Shown here piece after piece: positions 5,344-13,813 of a stretch of DNA of 64,000 bases. Source of the stretch: Parcubacteria group bacterium (GTDB lineage: Bacteria; Patescibacteriota; Patescibacteriia; UBA2169); NCBI GenBank assembly GCA_016181765.1, contig JACOYR010000004.1:201853-265852 (forward strand), in the 5' to 3' direction. Each line of letters begins with the position of its first letter. Position 1 is the stretch's first letter. The notes below the pieces were generated by a model, which was not told the DNA's origin, searched no databases, and saw only the letters and a program-made list of their open reading frames with translations. Position numbers and translations under genes: made by a program.

Positions 5344-6132
5344 TCACAGCGGGCTCTGAATCGCGGCCAGAGCAGATCGCGCCACCTTGGTGTACACCTG
5401 CGTGGTGGTAAGCCGCGCGTGGCCCAAGAGCTCCTGGATGTACCGAATGTCGGTGCCGTTCTCCAGCAAGTGCGTGGCAAACGAATGGCGCAAGCTGTGG
5501 CAGCTTGCCTGTTTTTTGATGCCCGAATCTTTGAGCGCGTGGGCAAATATCTTTTGAGCCGACCGTTCAGTCAGCTTCCCGCCGCGGCTGCTTTCAAACA
5601 CAAAATCGCGTGCGTCTTTTTTTGCAACATACCGCGCAAGCGGCGCGCTGACTTTTTCAGAAAACAAGGTAACCCGGTCTTTCCCTCCTTTGCCGCCGCG
5701 AACCATCACGGCTTGGTTATCAAAATCCAAATCCCCCACCTTGAGATTCACGGCTTCGGAAACCCGCAACCCGGCCGAGTACATCATCCCGAGCAGGAGC
5801 TTGTGCTTGGCGCTTTTGATGGTTCCGAGCAATAACCGCACTTCTTGTTTGGAGAGCACCACCGGAAGTTTTTTTGATGATTTGGCGCGCGGAATGGAAA
5901 CAAAAAATCTCCGCTTGAGCACGGAGCCAAAGTAAAACTTAAGGGCGCTGTACACGGTATTGAGTGTTGACGCGGACTTTCCCGCGTCCGCGAGCGCTTC
6001 CAGATACTTTCGGACATCAGCCGTAGTGGTTGCCCGGGGGCCTTTGCCCGCCGAGCGCAAAAAGCCTTTGACGTTCGTTATATACGAACTTTGGGTCATT
6101 GGGCTAAACCCCCGCAGTTTCATCTCCTGCAC
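5344..6132 (-). CDS. tyrosine site-specific recombinase (XerC/XerD/IntI branch)
   Basis: The C-terminal catalytic motifs HSLRHSFATHLLENGTDIRYIQELLGH…TTQVYTKV are present. The segment KKLPVVLSKQEV…GLRVSEAVNLKVGDLDFDNQAVMVRGGKGGKDR resembles XerD and IntI. At 262 aa it lacks the IntI-specific insertion. It is divergent from the adjacent AT-rich island. Confidence 0.9.
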   Translation of the reverse strand: MQEMKLRGFSPMTQSSYITNVKGFLRSAGKGPRATTTADVRKYLEALADAGKSASTLNTVYSALKFYFGSVLKRRFFVSIPRAKSSKKLPVVLSKQEVRLLLGTIKSAKHKLLLGMMYSAGLRVSEAVNLKVGDLDFDNQAVMVRGGKGGKDRVTLFSEKVSAPLARYVAKKDARDFVFESSRGGKLTERSAQKIFAHALKDSGIKKQASCHSLRHSFATHLLENGTDIRYIQELLGHARLTTTQVYTKVARSALAAIQSPL

Positions 6133-6179
6133 GAATTTCTCAAAGCCTTCCGTAAAAACAACCAGTTCGTATATAACTA

Positions 6180-6207
6180 GTTATAAGAAATTTAATTTGA
6201 AAGCCCT
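6180..6207. repeat. left copy of a 28-bp imperfect inverted repeat (gttataagaaatttaatttgaaagccct) flanking the deoxyribosyltransferase-like gene
   Basis: Its reverse complement pairs with 6633-6660 at 25 of 28 positions. Confidence 0.7.
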
Positions 6208-6237
6208 AAGAGGAATTAACAAGTAAATGCATGAAAT

Positions 6238-6630
6238 ATGAAAATAGTCATCTGCGGTTCTAGACGTTTCTTTGACGACATTCGCGACTTGGAACGCAAG
6301 TTGCGCGAGAACGGTCATATTGTCTTGGGACCCATACTCAACAGAAATAAATCTATCAGCGACCTGCCGAGTGATCTTAAAACATACGCTTTTTTAGGAT
6401 TGACGCTTCACCATTTTGAATTTATCCGCAAAGCCGACATCTGCTTCATGTACAACAAAGATGGTTATCTTGGCAACAGTGGTACTTTGGAGCTTGGTTT
6501 TGTGGTCGCCTGCGGTATTCCAATATACGCTCTGAATGAAGATAAAGACGAGGTTTGCAGGAATGTACTCTTTGACTTCGTGGTTAATGACATTGATGAA
6601 TTCGTTAAAATTGTTAATTCCAATAAATGA
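6238..6630 (+). CDS. nucleoside 2-deoxyribosyltransferase-like / SLOG-fold protein
   Basis: The 130-aa product starts MKIVICGS…, and the segment GYLGNSGTLELGFVVACGIPIYAL matches the catalytic-Glu region G.G.ELG(F/Y)A of the Nuc_deoxyrib_tr family. The gene is AT-rich (about 33% GC) and is bounded by inverted repeats. Confidence 0.65.
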   Translation: MKIVICGSRRFFDDIRDLERKLRENGHIVLGPILNRNKSISDLPSDLKTYAFLGLTLHHFEFIRKADICFMYNKDGYLGNSGTLELGFVVACGIPIYALNEDKDEVCRNVLFDFVVNDIDEFVKIVNSNK

Positions 6631-6632
6631 CA

Positions 6633-6660
6633 AGGGCTTTCAAATTAAACATCTTATAAC
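6633..6660. repeat. right copy of the 28-bp inverted repeat; it overlaps the start of palindromic element A copy 1
   Basis: The sequence agggctttcaaattaaacatcttataac is the reverse complement of the left copy at 6180-6207. Confidence 0.7.
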
Positions 6661-6839
6661 ACTGAATATGCGGTTCAAAAACATTGCCCATTAGATACGA
6701 TTGGTCGCAATGTTTTTTCACCCAAATGGCGCTTCTGATATCCGCGATTGATGTTGTCTATACTGTGCATCTGATGACCACACTCCTACTGATTAAGACG
6801 GCGCCACTTCGCATATTCAGGAACGTTGCGACGAAATAA
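6656..6839 (+). repeat. palindromic element A, copy 1 (about 184 bp): outer IR cactgaatatgcgg/cgcatattcag, inner perfect 11-bp hairpin aaaaacattgc/gcaatgttttt, 3' tail gaacgttgcgacgaaataa
   Basis: It is 5'-identical over about 68 bp to copy 2 at 11488, and it shares its architecture and 3' tail with copy 3 at 12786. Confidence 0.7.
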
Positions 6840-6980
6840 TTTTTTTTATAAGTTTTTCTCAATCGGCTTTTTAAGAAAAGGAATAAAATAAGTTTTTTAA
6901 GAATTAGGATTTTAGGAGGGGTAAAGCCAAGGTGGTTTTCTCCGCTTCGCTCCGAAAACGATTCATTAATTAATTTATGT

Positions 6981-7439
6981 ATGTCAAAAATTAATGTAGT
7001 TTATACGCCCAAAATTGATGAAGAAGAAAAAAGAATATTTGAAGAAGTATTCGGAAAAAATAAAGTAGTATTTGGGGAATATAAAATTAAAGGAATAACA
7101 TGGGGCGCATTTGACATTCAAATAATAATAGACGCCTTGAATGACCCCACCATAACAGCCTTACTACACGGCACAGAATTTGCGCGTTTAATTGCCGTAT
7201 TGGTTAAAAAATTATTTAGCAGAAATACTAAAAAAATAATGGATAATAAATCAAGACCCAGATACACGACTTTGGTTATAAGAAAAGAAACTAGTTCTGT
7301 CGTAGTATCAAATGTTAATCCCGGCAACAAAATTCTTATTTCTAAAATCACGGCTAATTTCGAGGAAATTAAAAAACAGTTTGAGAGCGGTGATGATAAA
7401 TATACAGATGAAAAACTTAATAACTACTTGGATAATTAA
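6981..7439 (+). CDS. hypothetical protein (152 aa)
   Basis: It is an AT-rich ORF in an operon-like arrangement with the next two ORFs, which are spaced 5 and 4 bp apart. Confidence 0.5.
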   Translation: MSKINVVYTPKIDEEEKRIFEEVFGKNKVVFGEYKIKGITWGAFDIQIIIDALNDPTITALLHGTEFARLIAVLVKKLFSRNTKKIMDNKSRPRYTTLVIRKETSSVVVSNVNPGNKILISKITANFEEIKKQFESGDDKYTDEKLNNYLDN

Positions 7440-7444
7440 AATTT

Positions 7445-7651
7445 ATGAAGTCAAAAATAATTAAAAGCAAACGACTAAAGGATCGCATAGTGGAGATAAT
7501 TGAGTATAAAGATGATTTTGGGAAAATTGTAAATTATTCTGTTATTAACGTAAACCATGGCGAAGGGGTCATTGCGGGTGCCGGTAAATTAGAAGAAAAT
7601 AATTTTTCTAATGAAGAGGAAGCAATGATATTTTTTAATAATCAAAATTAA
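7445..7651 (+). CDS. hypothetical small protein (68 aa)
   Basis: Its spacing to the neighbouring genes suggests translational coupling. Confidence 0.4.
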   Translation: MKSKIIKSKRLKDRIVEIIEYKDDFGKIVNYSVINVNHGEGVIAGAGKLEENNFSNEEEAMIFFNNQN

Positions 7652-7655
7652 ATCT

Positions 7656-10136
7656 ATGCAAAAACAGTTCACAATCTATTTTATTCTTATTTTTATTCTA
7701 GGATTAACTTCGCTTAATTTTATTCAAAAAGTAAAAGCGTCAGATATTCCTGTGCCTATTGCCTACTGGAACCTTAACGACCAGGATGCTATAAATGCTG
7801 GCTTAGCATCCGATCAAATGGGTAACTATAATATGCAAATAGTTGACGGTACTTGGGATAGTAATGCATATGATGGCGGTTCTGTTGTTTTTAGTTGCAT
7901 GAAAACTGATTATAATGCTTGCGGGGCAAAAATCAGTAACGCCCTGCCAGAATTGAGCAAGTTTACTATATTATACAGAGTAAAATTAAAAGGTCCTATT
8001 AACAATACTCTTCGCCGCATCGTTGATTCAACGGGAGGATTTCATACATATTTTGACGGAAACTCAATCATGATTTCAGGAAACGGCATGAAAAATAGTA
8101 TTGATGAACCAATCAGTGTCAGCGAAAATTGGTATCATTTCGCAGTTGTTTACGACAATGCCGATGGTTATTATTTTTATAAAAATGGAAATTTAGCTGA
8201 ATACTCTACGACATCAGGCAATAAGATAAGCAGTGGGATCTGGTCCTTTGGGTATGGTGGTGGTGTCCAGGGCGATGCGAGTGCAAATATTATCCAACTT
8301 GATGAAATAAAAATATATGACACAGCACTTACCTCAGATCAAATTTTAGAAGAAAATAATTACAACGAAATAAGGTGTAAAGCAGATATTTACCAATATG
8401 GTGAGTGGGGCTCATGTCAGCCTGACGGCACAAAAACCAGAACTGCGACCAAAACGTTTAACTGTCCTTATACAAATAATGAACCAGAAAATGCAACAAC
8501 AAGTTGTAGCTATATTCCGCCTACTTGTACTTCTTGGCAATACTCAAACTGGTCGCAGTGTTCGAATAGTGGCCAACAAATAAGAACTATTATTTCATCT
8601 TCGCCAAGTGGCTGTGTTGATGGAAAGCCAATTTTAAATCAAAGTTGTAATTATACTCCTGTTTGTACAGTCAATAATTGGTCGTGTGATAATTGGTCGG
8701 GTTGTTCTTCTGGTGGAACTCAAACCAGATCCTGTAATAAAATTTCAAATTGCGAGGGTGGAATTTCCGCCCCGACCACCTCTCAATCCTGTACCTACAC
8801 TCCGACTTGTTCGGCAGACACTTGGCAGTGTGAAAATTGGGGGTCTTGCTCGCCACAAGGAATACAGGCAAGAAGCTGTACCAGAACCTATGACTGCCCG
8901 TCCGCTGAAACAGCGGCCCCGGCGACATCGCAATATTGCGTAGCCCCAAACCAGCCCAAACAACAATCACCGACCGAGGATTTGGGCATAGTAAACCAAA
9001 GCACAATTATAAAATCCACAGTTAAGCTTGTTTGTCCCGTAAATAGCACCACCGCAAGCCAAGGTTCGGGCACAGTTATCAATTCAACCGGCTTAATTTT
9101 GACCAATAAACACGTCATTGACGATACAGCCGGATGTCTAGTCGGGTTTATTGATGATTATGGCGATGAACCGTATTTTGGCGACAGGCAGATCGCTGAT
9201 ATTTACAAAATATCCAGCGATGCTGATGTTGCTGTTTTGAAATTGAGAAATCCAAGCAACAAGCCGCTAACCTCGATCAGTATTTCTCAAAGCAACAGCA
9301 ACAACATCAAATTGGGAGAAATACTTACTACCTACGGCTATCCGGCAAAATTCGGCACAAAAATAACCTACACCAGCGGCGATTTTAGCGGCGTGGACGG
9401 CAATTATCTGAAAACAACCGCTATTATTGAGCACGGCAATTCCGGCGGAGGCGCGTATTTAAAAAATGGCGCGTTTATCGGCATTCCAACCGCCGTAGTA
9501 AAAGGCAGTTTAAACTCCTTGGGCTATTTACTGTCAATCAATAAAGTAAACAGCTGGCTTAATAATTCTATAGCATATAACTACAATAATAATGACAATA
9601 ATTATTCGCGGGTTTCGGCTTTGTTAGAAGATATAAATTTGAACACTCTTGATTCTTTGGGCCTGTTCTTGCCTGGAGATGAGAAAAATCTTAAAACCCA
9701 AACAGAAAGCCAAAGCGTAATAGCCGAAGAAAAATTGTTGACCACCAAAATTGACAGCAGTTTATCAAGAAGAGTGAGTGGAAATATTCTGTTGCAGGTG
9801 GAAAAGAAAGGCGAAGGGTGGTATGTATATCCGGATAATAAAAAGAAGTATTATTTAGGCCGTCCGGCAGACGCTTTTAGCATTATGCGGAATTTGGGAT
9901 TGGGAATCAAACACAGCGAACTTAGCATTTATCTCAATTCAAAATTTCCCAGCAGATTATCCGGGAAAATATTATTGGATGTTGAGCAAAAAGGCGAAGC
10001 GTATTATATCAATCCAAACGACTTAAAGGGCTACTACCTTAGCAAGCCAGCAGACGCATTCAGAATTATGCGAGAACTCGGGCTGGGAATCACTAATGAT
10101 GACATAAGGAAAATTGACGTTGGTGAGACAGAATAA
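7656..10136 (+). CDS. secreted multidomain protein with a signal peptide, a LamG/ConA-like lectin domain, three thrombospondin-type-1-like Cys repeats, a trypsin-like serine protease domain and two C-terminal repeats of about 60 aa
   Basis: The N-terminus has the hydrophobic segment MQKQFTIYFILIFILGLTSLNF. The LamG-like region reads NWYHFAVVYD…LDEIKIYDTAL. The WxxWxxCSxxGxQxR repeats are CTSWQYSNWSQCSNSGQQIR, WSCDNWSGCSSGGTQTR and WQCENWGSCSPQGIQAR. The TNKHVI segment (His) and the GNSGGGAY segment (Ser) indicate a trypsin-like protease. Tandem repeats at the C-terminus read GKILLDVEQKGEAYYINP… and SGNILLQVEKKGEGWYVYP…. Confidence 0.8.
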   Translation: MQKQFTIYFILIFILGLTSLNFIQKVKASDIPVPIAYWNLNDQDAINAGLASDQMGNYNMQIVDGTWDSNAYDGGSVVFSCMKTDYNACGAKISNALPELSKFTILYRVKLKGPINNTLRRIVDSTGGFHTYFDGNSIMISGNGMKNSIDEPISVSENWYHFAVVYDNADGYYFYKNGNLAEYSTTSGNKISSGIWSFGYGGGVQGDASANIIQLDEIKIYDTALTSDQILEENNYNEIRCKADIYQYGEWGSCQPDGTKTRTATKTFNCPYTNNEPENATTSCSYIPPTCTSWQYSNWSQCSNSGQQIRTIISSSPSGCVDGKPILNQSCNYTPVCTVNNWSCDNWSGCSSGGTQTRSCNKISNCEGGISAPTTSQSCTYTPTCSADTWQCENWGSCSPQGIQARSCTRTYDCPSAETAAPATSQYCVAPNQPKQQSPTEDLGIVNQSTIIKSTVKLVCPVNSTTASQGSGTVINSTGLILTNKHVIDDTAGCLVGFIDDYGDEPYFGDRQIADIYKISSDADVAVLKLRNPSNKPLTSISISQSNSNNIKLGEILTTYGYPAKFGTKITYTSGDFSGVDGNYLKTTAIIEHGNSGGGAYLKNGAFIGIPTAVVKGSLNSLGYLLSINKVNSWLNNSIAYNYNNNDNNYSRVSALLEDINLNTLDSLGLFLPGDEKNLKTQTESQSVIAEEKLLTTKIDSSLSRRVSGNILLQVEKKGEGWYVYPDNKKKYYLGRPADAFSIMRNLGLGIKHSELSIYLNSKFPSRLSGKILLDVEQKGEAYYINPNDLKGYYLSKPADAFRIMRELGLGITNDDIRKIDVGETE

Positions 10137-10259
10137 AAATATCCAATTATTTGTAGACATCTTTCTTGTCTTATTCTAATATATATGCTATTATTAGAAT
10201 AAGCTAATTCTTTATTATAACCGTTAGAATAACGAAACTCCTTATTCTAACCGCAAAAT

Positions 10260-11360
10260 ATGGCTAACCAACCCTTTAATCCGCCCGCCTTACCGCCAAA
10301 AATCAACTATGAGCCACTGATTGACCATATTATCAGGGCCCACCGCGCCCTGGCCGGGCTTGATTCCCTGCTTGGCGCTTTACCCAACCCGAACCTATTG
10401 GGCCGAACCATGCAAACCAAAGAAGCGGTGGAAAGTTCAAAAATAGAGGGTACCCAAGCCACGATCAACGAAGTCTTGGCGTATGAAGCGGAACCGGGGA
10501 AAAAGGAAGATGCCAAGAAAAAACAAGACATAAACGAGATTATAAATTACCGCCAGGCTTTGGACTTGGGAGTAAAAAGTTTAACCACACTGCCGTTGTC
10601 CGAAAACTTGATTAAAAAACTGCATGCCACCCTGCTTAAATCCGGCCGGGGCGCCAATAAAGCGCCGGGTGAATTTAGAAAAATACAGGTGTACATCGGC
10701 AAGCCCGGAGCCACTATTTCCGAAGCGTCATATATTCCCCCGGCTGCTAACGGCATAATCTCCTTATTCAGCAATTTGGAAAAATACCTTAATAGCGGCG
10801 ATGAAAAAGACAAATTAGTGCAAATCGCGGTGGCCCATTATCAATTTGAAGCTATCCACCCTTTTTTGGACGGCAACGGCCGGGTCGGCCGGCTGATTAT
10901 CTCTCTGTTTTTGTACGAGAAAAAATTATTATCGCACCCGTTTCTGTATTTGAGCGAATTTTTTGAGGAGCACCGCCGGGATTATTACGAATTATTGAGC
11001 AATGTGAGCGCCAAGCAGGATTGGGAAAGCTGGATAAAATTTTTCTTGAACGCCCTGGCCACCCAAGCCCAAAAAGCCGAAGCCATTGGCAAGGAAATTC
11101 TGAAACTCCACAGCGGCTATAAAGAAAAAATTATAGCCATCAACTCCATGTATGCCAATAACTTATTGGACGCGATTTTTATTCGGCCGATTTTTACCAC
11201 TGCCAGCCTGCGGCCGCACGTTAAAATGAAAAATACCCAGACATTTTTCAGCTTAGTGGCAAAATTCGCCGCCGCCGGAATTTTAGAAGAAGCCAACCCC
11301 AAAAAAAGACGCAATAAAGTTTATGTCTTCACGGAATTAATGAAGCTTTTGAATAAATAA
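10260..11360 (+). CDS. fic: Fic family AMPylase (Fido) with an N-terminal inhibitory motif
   Basis: The canonical HPFLDGNGRVGR motif is present. The upstream SSKIEG matches the (S/T)xxxE(G/N) auto-inhibition motif of class II Fic proteins. Confidence 0.9.
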   Translation: MANQPFNPPALPPKINYEPLIDHIIRAHRALAGLDSLLGALPNPNLLGRTMQTKEAVESSKIEGTQATINEVLAYEAEPGKKEDAKKKQDINEIINYRQALDLGVKSLTTLPLSENLIKKLHATLLKSGRGANKAPGEFRKIQVYIGKPGATISEASYIPPAANGIISLFSNLEKYLNSGDEKDKLVQIAVAHYQFEAIHPFLDGNGRVGRLIISLFLYEKKLLSHPFLYLSEFFEEHRRDYYELLSNVSAKQDWESWIKFFLNALATQAQKAEAIGKEILKLHSGYKEKIIAINSMYANNLLDAIFIRPIFTTASLRPHVKMKNTQTFFSLVAKFAAAGILEEANPKKRRNKVYVFTELMKLLNK

Positions 11361-11447
11361 AGAGTTTTGGGCAAAGGGCATTCACCCCTAACCCCTCTGC
11401 CCCTTGCCCAAAACAAAAAATAAATTTAAGATTTAAGAAAAAAAAGC
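11361..11447 (+). repeat. repeat B, copy 1: terminator-like hairpin ttttgggcaaagggca…tgccccttgcccaaaa plus an AT-rich tail, directly after fic
   Basis: It is about 90% identical over its first 53 bp to 12658-12745. Confidence 0.7.
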
Positions 11448-11487
11448 CTACCAAAAGACATCAAAAAAAATATTTTTAGAACAGCGT

Positions 11488-11605
11488 ATAACACTGAATA
11501 TGCGGTTCAAAAACATTGCCCCTTAGATATGATCGGTCGCAATGTTTTTTCACCCATATTTGCCTCCGCTACGCTTTGGCAAACATCGCATATTCAGGAA
11601 CGTTG
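11488..11605 (+). repeat. palindromic element A, copy 2
   Basis: The 5' 68 bp are near-identical to copy 1, and it ends with tcgcatattcaggaacgttg. Confidence 0.7.
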
Positions 11606-11943
11606 TAACCGCTCAACAAGACCGTAGAGACCAAAACGATTATTTCCATCAGCAAATAAACATATTCGTAAAAAATTTGAGTGACGGCAATGAGGTGCAA
11701 ATCCTGTCCACCCAAGGAGATGTAAGAGAAACGGGATGGGTTAGTGCAAGCTTTAGTCCTGACAGCAAATACGGCGTATACAATCTAAACAAGCAGCTCT
11801 GGATTCTTGACGCTGAAACTGGAGAAAAAACACAGCTTACAACCGAGTTGAGAGAGTACCGCGAACCTCGTTGGTCTACGGACGGAAATAAAATTATCTA
11901 TACTACGGGTGAAGAAGTAAGATTAATTAAACTGACATTTTGA
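11542..11943 (+). pseudogene. fragment of a TolB-like PD40 beta-propeller protein (probable gene remnant)
   Basis: The translation …SDGNEVQILSTQGDVRE…FSPDSKYGVYN…REPRWSTDGNKIIYTT contains PD40-type repeats. There are only about 100 aa of the domain, and the ORF's 5' end runs into repeat element A, so no credible start exists. Confidence 0.35.
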
Positions 11944-12032
11944 TTCTATCAAATACATATATTTCCCTTGAACCTGCCCATGAGGCGGGCAGACACCCCA
12001 TTAGTTCCCCTCCGCCCTTTACCTATCAATTC

Positions 12033-12563
12033 ATGAAACCAACACCAAACAACTTCGCCTACATTGACGCCGCCAACTTGCACCGGGGCGTTATTCAGCT
12101 TGGCTGGCAATTGGATTACAAGAAATTCCGGATCTGGCTGAAAGAGAAATACGGCGTTAGCCAGGCCTATCTTTTCATCGGTCTGGTGCCCAAGCACAAA
12201 GATTTATACACCAGCTTGCAGGAAGCCGGCTTTACCCTTGTCTATAAAGAAATAACCTATGACGGCGAGGGCAAGGTCAAAGGAAATTGCGACGCTGATT
12301 TGGTGCTTAAAACCACCCGCGACGCTTACGAAAACTCGTTTGCGCAAGCGATTTTGGTTTCCAGCGACGGCGATTACGCCGGCTTGGTTAAATTTTTGCT
12401 GGAAAGAAACAAGTTCATGGGCATTATTTCCCCGTCAGTTTCGGCCAAATGTTCGGTGCTATTGAAACGGACCGGCGCGCGCATAGCGTACATCAATGAC
12501 CAGAGGTCCATATTGGAAATTACAAAAGGCGGCCAAAAAGAAAAAGCCCCCGGCCGGGACTAA
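12033..12563 (+). CDS. NYN-domain (LabA-like) putative ribonuclease
   Basis: Conserved acidic residues of the NYN fold are seen in FAYIDAANL…GNCDADLV…VSSDGDYAGLV. The ORF opens at 11940, but the Met at 12033 is the likely start. Confidence 0.8.
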   Translation: MKPTPNNFAYIDAANLHRGVIQLGWQLDYKKFRIWLKEKYGVSQAYLFIGLVPKHKDLYTSLQEAGFTLVYKEITYDGEGKVKGNCDADLVLKTTRDAYENSFAQAILVSSDGDYAGLVKFLLERNKFMGIISPSVSAKCSVLLKRTGARIAYINDQRSILEITKGGQKEKAPGRD

Positions 12564-12657
12564 CCCCGGCAAGGGTCTTTTTCGTAGTGATAAATACAGT
12601 ATAGCAGTTTGAGGCAAAAAGTCAATATAACTTATAAACAGCCCAAAAACAGACAAA

Positions 12658-12745
12658 GAGTTTTGGGCAAAGGGCATTCACCCCTAACCCCTCTGCCCTT
12701 TGCCTAAAACGGAAAAAACTTATTTTAAAATTTAAGAAAAAGCCG
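12658..12745 (+). repeat. repeat B, copy 2 (after the NYN gene)
   Basis: It carries the same hairpin as copy 1 with one compensating mismatch, and the same aaatttaagaaaaagcc tail. Confidence 0.7.
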
Positions 12746-12785
12746 ATTGAAGAAAAATTCAAAGAAAAAAAATTACATCGCGCAA

Positions 12786-12910
12786 CAGCGCATATGAGGT
12801 TCGGGAAAAAGCGATAATTTGATATAATCAAGGTGTCGCCTTTCCCCTCTCCCAAACCCGCCAAGGAGGCGGGCTTCTCATATGCGCGAACGTTCTGCGA
12901 AATAAAATAA
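12786..12910 (+). repeat. palindromic element A, copy 3 (diverged): outer IR gcgcatatgag/ctcatatgcgc, 3' tail gaacgttctgcgaaataaaataa
   Basis: Its architecture and conserved 3' tail match copies 1 and 2. Confidence 0.55.
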
Positions 12911-12926
12911 TTTTATTCAATTTTTT

Positions 12927-13183
12927 ATGAGTATAGAAAGACCTGAAAACATACAAGAACAGCTTCGGGAAATTTTTTTAAAGGAAGAATATACCTGTCG
13001 CCGGAACAATTAAAAATCATTGATTTCTTGGACCAGATGGGGCGCATTGTCGTTAAAGACGCGGAAGAGATATTGTCCTGCCCGCGGCGCACGGCGCAAT
13101 TGCACTTGCAAAAATTAAAAAAGATTAAAATGATTAAAGCCACCGGCAAAGGCAAATCCACCGCCTATATCGCCAATAAATAA
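12927..13183 (+). pseudogene. winged-HTH regulator (…LSPEQLKIIDFLDQMGRIVVKDAEEILSCPRRTAQLHLQKLKKIKMIKATGKGKSTAYIANK) split by a frameshift in a T7 tract
   Basis: The ATG at 12927 gives MSIERPENIQEQLREIFLKEEYT and then a stop. Frame +2 (read relative to that ATG) continues from 12947 as an HTH with the typical GKG(K/R)ST.Y ending. The two frames join at aatttttttaaagg. Confidence 0.4.
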
Positions 13184-13213
13184 TAAGGGTGTTTAAGGCG
13201 CGCGGTATGTATG

Positions 13214-13813
13214 CTACGCCATAAGCACGTTCGCGCGCTGCGGCTTCCAGAGCACGGTGATGGCGCTCGCGAACGCGAGGCCGGACATCAACACAAACAG
13301 CGCGTCAAAGCCATACTTTGACGCAATCACGGCGCCGGCCACGGACCCGACTGCAGTGGTGTAGTAGGTCATGGCCTCCCACACGCCCCACTGGCGCGCC
13401 GGATGCCGGAAATCCAGGTGCTGGGAATACAACGCGGAAAACGGGGGCGCGTACACTGCCTGCCCGGCTCCGATCACCGCCTCAACGATAAGCAGGGTTG
13501 CGAACGAATCAACCAACGTGTACAAAGCAAACCCAAGTCCGATGATCGCGTACCCGATGCCCACGAACACCCTGCGCGAACCAGACCAGTCGCTCGCCTT
13601 CCCCACAACCAAGGTAAGGGTGCCCGCGACCACGGCGAACACCCCTCCGGCAATGCCCGCATTCAAAATAGAGCCGCCCACATCAGCGATAAACAGCGCG
13701 TAAATGGGCCCAAGCATTGCTTCGGCAAGGAAAATCAGCCCATTGGTGATGAGCAAAAACTGGCGGATTTTGTTGTGCTTCTTTGGTGCCATATCACGAT
13801 ACAAAAAACCCAC
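13214..13813 (-). CDS. MFS transporter, N-terminal six-TM half only (truncated?)
   Basis: Six hydrophobic helices and MFS motif A (GKASDWSGSRRV) are present. The protein is 199 aa, whereas a 12-TM MFS is about 400 aa. The stop lies about 15 bp from the AT-rich island boundary. Confidence 0.7.
   Translation of the reverse strand: MGFLYRDMAPKKHNKIRQFLLITNGLIFLAEAMLGPIYALFIADVGGSILNAGIAGGVFAVVAGTLTLVVGKASDWSGSRRVFVGIGYAIIGLGFALYTLVDSFATLLIVEAVIGAGQAVYAPPFSALYSQHLDFRHPARQWGVWEAMTYYTTAVGSVAGAVIASKYGFDALFVLMSGLAFASAITVLWKPQRANVLMA

Follow-up and report, generated by a model that had tools for sequence, protein, structure and literature searches.

The locus

A 64,000-nucleotide stretch of a Parcubacteria group genome (assembly GCA_016181765.1, contig JACOYR010000004.1, positions 201,853 to 265,852 of the forward strand; hereafter the window) contains three copies of a palindromic element, here called A, and a nearby gene for an Xer-type tyrosine recombinase, which are the subject of this analysis. 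The A copies lie in an island at 6.1–13.2 kb with a GC content of 32–44% (40% overall), compared with ~56% in the rest of the window. The left end of the island is a dif-like site beside the recombinase gene, which points away from the copies. These follow an SLOG-like gene, a Fic gene with a hairpin repeat (repeat B), and a NYN gene with a second copy of repeat B, a placement already given in the original prediction, which was made from the sequence of the window and proposed either an RNA fold or a cruciform recombination site. That prediction had overlooked the gene for the recombinase, the dif-like entry site and the organization into cassettes. Coordinates are collected in Table 1.

Anatomy and folding of the A elements

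Every A copy has the architecture ACATC-NNNN-AAC-A-[11-bp arm]-two hairpins-[arm′]-GAAC-G|TT, where the bar marks the crossover, and the three share a common register, AAC-A-[arm]-G...T-[arm′]-GAAC-GTT. Copies 1 and 2, which had been predicted to share their 5′ stretch, are 93% identical over 80 nt (6648–6727 versus 11480–11559) and contain the perfect 11-bp inner hairpin described at the outset (AAAAACATTGC/GCAATGTTTTT). The outer inverted repeat, reported for all three copies, pairs over 11 bp without a mismatch, as CTGAATATGCG/CGCATATTCAG in copies 1 and 2 and as GCGCATATGAG/CTCATATGCGC in copy 3, whose arms differ yet remain self-complementary, four of the 11 pairs being changed on both sides. 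The common ending aacgtt(n2-3)cgaaataa ascribed to all copies was not borne out: copy 2 reads AACGTTGTAACCGCTCAAC and lacks the tail. After AACGTT, copy 1 has GCGA followed by CGAAATAA (n = 4) and copy 3 has CTG followed by CGAAATAA (n = 3), while copy 2 continues GTTGTAACCGCTC. The CGAAATAA ‘tail’ is the start of the next cassette, and everything past G|TT lies outside the A element.

The motif GAACGTT occurs three times on the forward strand of the window, each time in an A copy; because about four occurrences are expected by chance, this count by itself carries little weight. The shared register does carry weight, as do the scores of 72–80 bits against a covariance model of the site family described below. 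Folded as single-stranded DNA, both strands of each copy form a stem closing two hairpins, with z-scores of −3.3 to −5.5 relative to shuffled sequence. Copy 1 forms a three-way junction at z = −3.45, the same fold reaches −3.3 and −3.8 on the two strands of copy 2, and copy 3 reaches −4.9 and −5.5.

Table 1. Features of the recombinase locus. Positions are those of the window, except in the last three rows, where they are those of the named locus.
Feature	Position	Strand	Description
Xer-type tyrosine recombinase gene	5344–6132	−	Divergent from the array; 5′-truncated
dif-like entry site (attI equivalent)	6164–6191	+	11+6+11 layout; crossover 6180|6181; left arm AGTTCGTATAT 6164–6174; centre AACTAG 6175–6180; right arm TTATAAGAAAT 6181–6191
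Cassette 1	6181–6825 (645 bp)	+	SLOG/nucleoside-deoxyribosyltransferase-like open reading frame (ORF) 6238–6630; A copy 1
A copy 1, attC-like site	6649–6838	+	72.4 bits, E 2e-14; absent from model training set
Parts of A copy 1		+	R″ ACATCTTATAAC 6649–6660; A 6661; L″ 6662–6672; hairpin 1 arms 6677–6687 and 6707–6717; junction motif CACCCAAAT 6719–6727; hairpin 2 ~6728–6805; L′ 6810–6820; bulge GAAC 6821–6824; crossover 6825|6826
Cassette ‘2’	6826–11602 (4.8 kb)	+	Mosaic; leader, four ORFs (6981–7439; 7445–7651; 7656–10136, LamG and trypsin-like secreted protein; SoFic 10260–11360), repeat B, A copy 2
Conserved cassette 5′ leader	6914–6959	+	AGGAGGGG...GGTGGTTTTCTCCGCTTCGCTCCGAAAAC; exact degenerate match in seven distant loci
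Repeat B, first copy	11364–11414	+	Hairpin with 17-bp arms, upstream of A copy 2
A copy 2	11481–11615	+	80.5 bits, E 2.8e-16
Parts of A copy 2		+	R″ ACAGCGTATAAC 11481–11492; L″ 11494–11504; L′ 11587–11597; bulge GAAC 11598–11601; crossover 11602|11603
Cassette ‘3’	11603–12892	+	TolB/PD40-like ORF fragment to 11943; NYN-domain ORF 11940–12563; repeat B; A copy 3
Repeat B, second copy	12660–12710	+	Upstream of A copy 3
A copy 3	12775–12905	+	73.9 bits, E 9e-15
Parts of A copy 3		+	R″ ACATCGCGCAAC 12775–12786; L″ GCGCATATGAG 12788–12798; L′ 12877–12887; bulge GAAC 12888–12891; crossover 12892|12893
Last cassette-like segment	12893–13200	+	Small helix-turn-helix (HTH) ORF 13028–13183; island ends where GC rises
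Spirochaetota array, L075	8235–9565		R-box chain rule holds
Spirochaetota array, L076	7494–8825		R-box chain rule holds
Spirochaetota array, L086	11724–16051		R-box chain rule holds

The crossover point in related genomes

The window was compared with contigs encoding an identical recombinase protein and with relatives whose recombinases are 94%, 82% and 81% identical. Five genomes (the window and four relatives) share ...AGTTCG(T/C)ATATAACTAG and diverge directly after GTT; the conserved stretch ends ...ATAACTAGTT, and the same boundary is read as AGTTCG(T/C)ATATAACTAGTT. Past the entry site, the window has ATAACTAG|TTATAAG (TTATAAGAAATTT), then the SLOG-like gene, then ...CAGGAACG|TTGCGACGAAATAA. 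In bacterium CG10_46_32 (L004–L009), ATAACTAG is joined straight to TTGCGACGAAATAA (TTGCGACGAAATAATTTTTTTTATAAG, TTGCGACGAAATAATTTTTTTTATAAGTTTTTCTCAATCGG), the sequence that follows copy 1 in the window. Since the two flanks are directly joined in this relative, the segment 6181–6825 is a separate inserted unit of 645 bp with G|TT at either end. The relative with the 94% identical recombinase reads ATAACTAG|TTATGTG (TTATGTGAAATTG) and then has a methyltransferase; another relative (L010) reads ATAACTAG|TTATACGC (TTATACGCAATTC), followed by an A site and GAACG|TTAGCTG.

The first 28 nt at the start of cassette 1 (6180–6207) are 93% complementary to 6633–6660, the stretch that ends in the AAC of copy 1. 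Judged by its two ends, cassette 1 follows integron cassette logic, the first bases of the circle completing the outer stem of the cassette’s own site. The predicted junctions are CATATTCAGGAACG|TTATAAGAAATTTAATTTG for the circular SLOG cassette and ATATAACTAG|TTGCGACGAAATAATTTT for the empty site. Contigs with an identical recombinase (L001, L002) end inside copy 1. In CG10_46_32 (L004), the same cassette left end is present but 7.4 kb of upstream sequence contain no A site, so that not every array is dense.

A dif-like entry site and its putative folded counterpart

The entry-site crossover falls at the boundary of the centre and the right arm, and the right arm also supplies the first bases of cassette 1. 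In the chemistry of Xer recombinases and integron integrases, the monomer bound to the right arm cuts the bottom strand (AA|C) at the boundary of centre and right arm. By hand count, 7/11 and 8/11 positions of the entry-site arms agree with the arms of E. coli dif, and the relatives’ consensus (AAGTTCGCATATAACTAGTT followed by NNNCGAAAT) is symmetric between its arms at 8/11; the E. coli site is GGTGCGCATAA-TGTATA-TTATGTTAAAT (PMC3025954). One genome per species was scanned for relatives of the recombinase and 80 loci were kept; among the 80 loci whose sequence covers the stretch concerned, most were judged by eye to have a similar site ~70–90 nt before the recombinase start. The entry site stands beside its recombinase gene as in single-recombinase Xer systems, where dif adjoins the xer gene (PMC9765430). 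A dif site is expected at the replication terminus, where GC skew switches; cumulative GC skew has no turning point at 6 kb, with just 6 kb of sequence on one side and foreign DNA in the island. The left arm of the entry site recurs as a perfect 14-nt inverted copy (AGTTCGTATATAAC) in the 5′ coding region of the recombinase gene (6077–6090 versus 6164–6177). Relatives have this copy too, and it may serve as an accessory binding site or in autoregulation.

Read as R″-A-L″, the A-site strand is [ACATC-NNNN-AA][C-A-NNNN][RTATNNG], that is, an arm complement, 6 nt and the complement of the inner end of the left arm (ATATGCG). This is the spacing of the entry-site bottom strand, and the opposite strand has three extra bases (the NNAC bulge). 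Because the spacing copies that of the dif-like bottom strand, the folded A strand would present a mimic of dif with three extra bases on one side and hence an unpaired, asymmetric centre. A mimic of this kind resembles the central spacer of attC and the folded attP of phage CTX.

The likeness to dif could also mean that the A sites work as double-stranded, dif-like sites of a housekeeping Xer recombinase, in the style of integrative mobile elements exploiting Xer (IMEX) or of the Acinetobacter pdif modules, with hairpins that are incidental or accessory. The entry site is dif-like and the recombinase is of the Xer type, and the top strand of J3 and L′ (ACTTCGCATAT) nearly copies the left arm AGTTCGTATAT and runs into a right arm, TTNNNNGAAAT. 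However, these arms would sit 9–10 bp apart and not 6, whereas tyrosine recombinases use 6–8 bp between arms. The centres of the A sites and of the entry site are not homologous, which makes a second strand exchange unlikely, and the covariation of L″ with L′ and of cassette starts with R″ (see below) has no role in a duplex site. Furthermore, all sites are direct, unlike those of pdif modules. Duplex sites are therefore improbable, and sites that act in the folded form are preferred.

A family of sites beside the recombinase gene

A strict search for AAC-A-arm...arm′-NNAC-(G/A)TT gave 38 distinct sites from ~25 genomes, and 24 strict-search sites were used to build a covariance model, R1; a loose hairpin scan for AAC...arm...arm′...GTT was dropped as too noisy in AT-rich DNA (357 matches versus 308 on the other strand). 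Within the window, R1 matches only the three A copies (E ≤ 1). In 925 kb of sequence from 82 loci, the model has 91 matches at E ≤ 0.001, up to eight per locus and with a median spacing of 812 nt. Of these, 82 are spread over 34 Patescibacteria loci, in every case on the upstream side of the recombinase gene and on the strand opposite to it, and R1 finds none in the ~580 kb of flank on the other side of the gene. The remaining nine belong to three Spirochaetota loci, in which the arrays run downstream of a related recombinase, on the same strand. The Spirochaetota recombinase has 351 or 435 residues and an N-terminal extension; by eye, the IntI insertion appears to be absent from it. A scan of metagenomes with the family motif returned at least 120 stretches, and 85 loci from metagenome and viral-contig scans hold 180 model matches, always on one strand per locus. 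One of these loci (L212, IMGVR_UViG_3300037796_000177), catalogued as viral, has six family sites on one strand; it could be an array wrongly classed as viral, or a mobile element that includes such an array. The search for further copies and for insertion polymorphism in relatives, put forward with the original prediction, has thus returned more than 270 further sites and a relative from which the SLOG cassette is absent.

In 39 of the 80 loci (L011–L090), the sequence ends at most 700 nt upstream of the recombinase gene, mostly at a contig end, and the locus seems to be a systematic assembly breakpoint in metagenome-assembled genomes of Patescibacteria. Such ends are expected if a hypervariable, repeat-rich array starts there, which would account for the assemblies that stop upstream of the gene in about half of the loci. 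Some lineages (L045, at 107–295 and 925–1103 in cassette orientation, L082, L034 and L062) alternate gene cassettes with an ORF-less, GC-rich element of ~190 nt. In this element, two left halves resembling R″-L″ are combined with a single right half, and the terminal sequence is CCC-A|TT, not AAC-G|TT.

The distribution bears on whether the A copies are selfish palindromes, similar to repetitive extragenic palindromic (REP) sequences or miniature inverted-repeat transposable elements (MITEs), or functionless leftovers of a local tandem duplication. Either origin would suit the 93% identity of copies 1 and 2 over 80 nt and the duplicated module of repeat B plus spacer, but no copy lies in the other 57 kb of the window or in the ~580 kb of other-side flanks, and the more than 270 further sites are spread over many lineages with structure kept as sequence varies. 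Moreover, the four pairs that set copy 3 apart from copies 1 and 2 are compensated. Both origins were rejected on distribution and are barely credible. A transposon with terminal inverted repeats, considered for the 28-nt and ~80-nt complementarity of cassette ends, was also rejected: the island shows no transposase and no target duplication, and end pairing is general in the family.

Conserved pairing and the R-box rule

A family site consists of an R box, a 1×4 internal loop (A opposite NNAC), an L stem of 11–12 bp, and a three-way junction with two variable hairpins. Several motifs are conserved though they lay outside the search pattern: ACATC (or GGGTC/CCCTC) four bases before AAC, RTAT in the arm, GTTC past the arm, CACCCAWAT between the inner hairpins, AACWTC before the second arm, and GAAAT four bases past GTT. 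AAC is invariant, whereas GTT is found in 18 of the 24 seed sites and ATT in the others; the consensus RYYYAAC/GTTRRRY is obeyed only in part.

In the seed alignment of 24 sites, the L stem is 97% paired and 9 of 11 pairs are changed on both sides; in the 91-site alignment, 93% of cells are paired, both percentages being inflated for reasons given below, and 20 of 21 pairs have compensatory changes. The covariation score is 0.609, compared with 0.144 for shuffled alignments (0 of 500 reach 0.609) and 0.06–0.11 when partners are slid by 1–3 columns. Since pairing is kept while the sequence changes, the structure of the A elements is under selection. This had been suspected from the three copies, and the folding and covariance analysis advised at that stage gave consistent folds and family-wide covariation.

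G·U pairs account for less than 1% at the variable L-stem positions, so both strands keep full complementarity, which fits a DNA element better than an RNA. Of the two roles first proposed, the recombination site is the one supported, by the switch at G|TT, the one-directional arrays by the recombinase gene and the pairing of cassette starts with their own sites; an RNA role is not supported, nor is one required. A structured RNA, be it a 3′ untranslated region stabiliser, a processing or termination element or a small RNA, could draw on the conserved junction motifs GTTC, CACCCAWAT and AACWTC, on a closing pair that is G·T in the DNA (G·U in RNA) in 63 of the 91 sites, on the co-orientation of sites with cassette genes, and on the significant fold z-scores. 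Nevertheless, Rfam 15 gives no match in the 64 kb at gathering scores or in 6100–13300 at E ≤ 1, no T run follows the stem within the element, and the switch of gene content at G|TT, the R-box rule and the restriction to recombinase-side arrays are left unexplained. An RNA role is very unlikely to be what the elements are for, and a DNA role could coexist with it.

In the circular form of a cassette, the R box, TC-NNNN-AAC, pairs with GTT-NNNN-GA at the start of that cassette. Of 81 consecutive pairs, counting that of entry site and first site, 45 have four bases past (G/A)TT that exactly complement the four before AAC in the next site; with shuffled partners, the mean is 6.1 and the maximum 14 (2000 trials). 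The pairs that fail are concentrated at places where a site has probably been overlooked, such as those with a repeated ORF-less element between cassettes. Complementarity to the own partner extends further, at 68% for nt 13–20 and 47% for nt 21–30 (~28–30% when shuffled), beyond a conserved 2×2 mismatch at nt 10–11. This extended complementarity gives an outer R stem of ~20–25 bp, and in the window the outer stems reach 28 nt and ~80 nt. The R box of a classical attC site, at 7 bp, is much shorter. The L stem has no bulged bases, and the 1×4 loop stands where the attC spacer would be.

The recombinase

At 229.8 bits, the protein clears the 220-bit cut-off of NF040815, the NCBIfam model of a site-specific tyrosine recombinase/integron integrase of the XerA type, and Pfam recognizes a Phage_integrase and a SAM-like N domain. 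Its translation shows the catalytic motifs R, K, HxxR, H and Y. The integron integrase model TIGR02249, matched in two separate stretches, gives 211.6 bits and stays under its cut-off of 265. The best solved relative is Pyrococcus abyssi XerA (4A8E; E 2.6e-44), followed by VchIntIA (2A3V), to which the protein aligns in two blocks (query 4–169 with chain 13–181; query 186–262 with chain 241–317). The ~60 residues 181–241 of VchIntIA face 16 residues; they make up the IntI-specific domain around patch III, which the recombinase lacks. Integron recombination is considered to depend on this additional domain, which also counts as a defining feature (PMC9668308). The relatives’ recombinase has 275 residues, and the closest relatives listed range from 260 to 302, mostly ~278. 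Homologues of ~60% identity occur by the thousands in Patescibacteria and have been placed in a ‘Cand’ Xer-related subgroup (PMC8138268).

The window lacks 70 nt that are present in four relatives, including contigs with an otherwise identical gene (junction 6149|6150). The missing stretch comprises the recombinase start codon and the conserved upstream region, and the only start left is an internal GTG, 13 codons short. The loss could be a real strain variant or an assembly artefact.

A classical integron, with IntI, attI and attC, has the same arrangement of gene and array, the same G|TT crossover and the same AAC/GTT boxes; the protein ends in ...SPL, as does IntI, and the sub-threshold TIGR02249 match is strong. 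The sequences TCGCCTAAC/GTTAGGCGA, frequent among the sites, match the canonical attC inverse core/core, GCCTAAC/GTTAGGC. The identification was nevertheless rejected and is extremely unlikely, since the IntI-specific insertion is absent from the protein and TIGR02249 stays below its cut-off. The sites also differ: their L stem is free of bulges, a 1×4 loop takes the place of a symmetric spacer, the R stem is long, and the three-way junction is conserved.

Interpretation and proposed mechanism

We read the A elements as attC-like, structure-specific sites that close the gene cassettes of an Xer/dif-based integron-like array, and give this reading a probability of roughly 75%. The narrower statement, that they are site-specific recombination sites bounding mobile cassettes, is very probably correct. 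The evidence comprises the anatomy and family-wide covariation of the elements, the fact that they occur exclusively in one position and orientation, an insertion polymorphism at G|TT, the partner rule of the R box and the type of recombinase. In the route that we infer, this recombinase is the catalyst: it would bind the folded single strand of a circular or transferred cassette, and would cut the bottom strand of the R′ box at AA|C, which corresponds to G|TT in the top strand. One strand would then be exchanged with the dif-like site, and the junction would be resolved by replication. Such a route would explain why all sites are direct, why the R′ box is split, why the central regions on both sides of each junction are unaltered and why the arrays are stable. 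Integrons (attI × attC) and phage CTX (Xer, dif and folded attP) use this one-strand route.

Several points weigh against the integron-like array. The recombinase is without the domain by which true integron integrases read folded attC, and, at ~60% identity across classes, it may be mainly a housekeeping Xer. In the window, its gene may be silent and the array frozen or no longer active. Recombination at A sites is deduced by comparing sequences, and the crossover can be placed only within the shared GTT. The percentages of pairing are inflated, the seed sites having been picked for complementary arms and the 91-site alignment fitted to the model, and the junction motifs and closing G·T pair would also suit an RNA role. 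Lastly, cassette 1 is the only one in the window whose two ends match each other. In cassette ‘2’, the left end (6828–6908) is complementary to 12703–12781, upstream of copy 3 and not of copy 2, and the mosaic nature of cassettes ‘2’ and ‘3’ needs the extra assumption of homologous recombination between conserved cassette ends.

Cassettes and repeat modules of the island

The mosaic between copies 1 and 3 would be explained by homologous recombination of conserved cassette ends or by secondary-site insertion. The right end of cassette ‘2’ (secreted-protein gene, repeat B, spacer and copy 2) is homologous to the first cassette of L010, which has a different left end and no SoFic gene. Repeat B is also found upstream of the A site in L010 (1244–1294). 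Together with an A-rich spacer, it forms a cassette 3′ module that is complementary over ~80–135 nt to the 5′ end of cassette ‘2’ (6826–6960), so that cassette ends form very long inverted repeats. Cassette ‘3’ starts within a gene fragment, and nowhere in the array is there an R″ that pairs with its opening bases, TTGTAACC. The fragment is a truncated TolB/PD40-like frame (11603–11943) lying directly past the copy 2 crossover, and reflects either a cassette joined to a secondary GTT site in a gene or a rearranged array.

The conserved 5′ leader of cassette ‘2’ recurs in L010, L032, L041, L060, L064, L074 and L078, always in cassette orientation, and is visible in many first cassettes. Its motif, GAGGGG...GGTG(G/T)TTTCTCCGCTYCGCTMCGAAAAC, comprises a 6-bp stem and a CGCT-rich loop; no Rfam family matched the leader. 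The Fic gene matches the SoFic anti-phage defence model with E 2.5e-114, and is preceded by two 30-nt repeats (10194–10253) that also form an inverted repeat and are probably an operator. The last segment has no terminal A site, with no model match past 12905; its HTH frame, within 12927–13183, looks split by a frameshift in a T run. A GC-rich chromosomal gene (13214–13813) follows with no A site in between. The cargo of the window (SoFic defence gene, NYN nuclease, SLOG-like protein and HTH protein) is typical of cassette arrays.

Relation to known systems

Like integrons, the array has a recombinase gene divergent from an entry site, a one-directional series of small cassettes (median spacing as given above), and a terminal imperfect palindrome that is conserved in structure and not in sequence, with AAC...GTT boxes and a G|TT crossover. 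The first bases of a cassette pair with its own R″, and the cargo consists of defence, toxin-like and unknown genes. Unlike integrons, it has no IntI domain, an integrase score under the cut-off and a dif-like 11+6+11 entry site; its sites combine a 1×4 loop, an unbulged L stem, a ~20–25-bp R stem with a 2×2 mismatch, and three-way junction motifs, and in some lineages gene cassettes alternate with ORF-less GC-rich elements. The array is outside the integron family as currently defined.

The array also resembles single-recombinase Xer modules, namely XerS/difSL, XerH/difH and archaeal XerA. XerA is the best solved relative, NF040815 is passed, and the dif-like site lies beside the xer gene (PMC9765430), so that, as far as sequence can tell, the array has the features of a single-recombinase Xer/dif module. 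Such modules are known only from chromosome dimer resolution, however, and have no cassette arrays. IMEX such as phage CTX of Vibrio cholerae likewise combine an Xer-type enzyme with a dif-like chromosomal site, and, by inference, the incoming folded single strand mimics dif with unpaired central bases; integration by one-strand exchange would be stable. They differ from the present arrays in that here the inserted units are small cassettes in long arrays and not phage genomes, a single recombinase replaces XerC and XerD, and the site family is phylum-wide. In Acinetobacter, gene modules are also bounded by Xer-type sites, but pdif sites are inverted duplex 28-bp sites on plasmids, whereas the sites described here are direct, structured and beside the recombinase gene.

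In an incomplete full-text collection, papers on integrons, attC, Xer or dif in Patescibacteria, the candidate phyla radiation (CPR) or Parcubacteria describe no such arrays and mention only the ‘Cand’ Xer-related subgroup. An Xer/dif-based integron look-alike thus appears to be undescribed in searchable papers. A 2026 study found that most metagenomic ‘integron-type’ recombinases are without detectable attC and may use novel sites (PMC13323075).

Significance

The array addresses two open questions, namely the origin of integrons from Xer-like recombinases and how cassettes and their sites are made. Since the integron layout and the G|TT logic are found together with a plain Xer recombinase and a dif-like site, the link between Xer and integrons becomes directly testable. 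Standard integron finders look for the IntI domain and for attC sites of the classical model; they would either overlook these arrays or report them as orphan sites only, and integron-like gene pools in metagenomes may be undercounted.

The proposed platform is widespread in Patescibacteria. At even odds, a plain Xer recombinase, a dif-like site and phylum-wide three-way-junction sites would constitute integron-like gene capture in Patescibacteria (CPR) and some Spirochaetota, either as a living ‘proto-integron’ that shows how Xer/dif gave rise to integrons or as an independent reinvention, and these tiny genomes would rely on it as a main route for gene flow and for the turnover of defence genes. 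CPR bacteria would thereby gain a concrete mechanism to acquire and shuffle accessory and defence genes.

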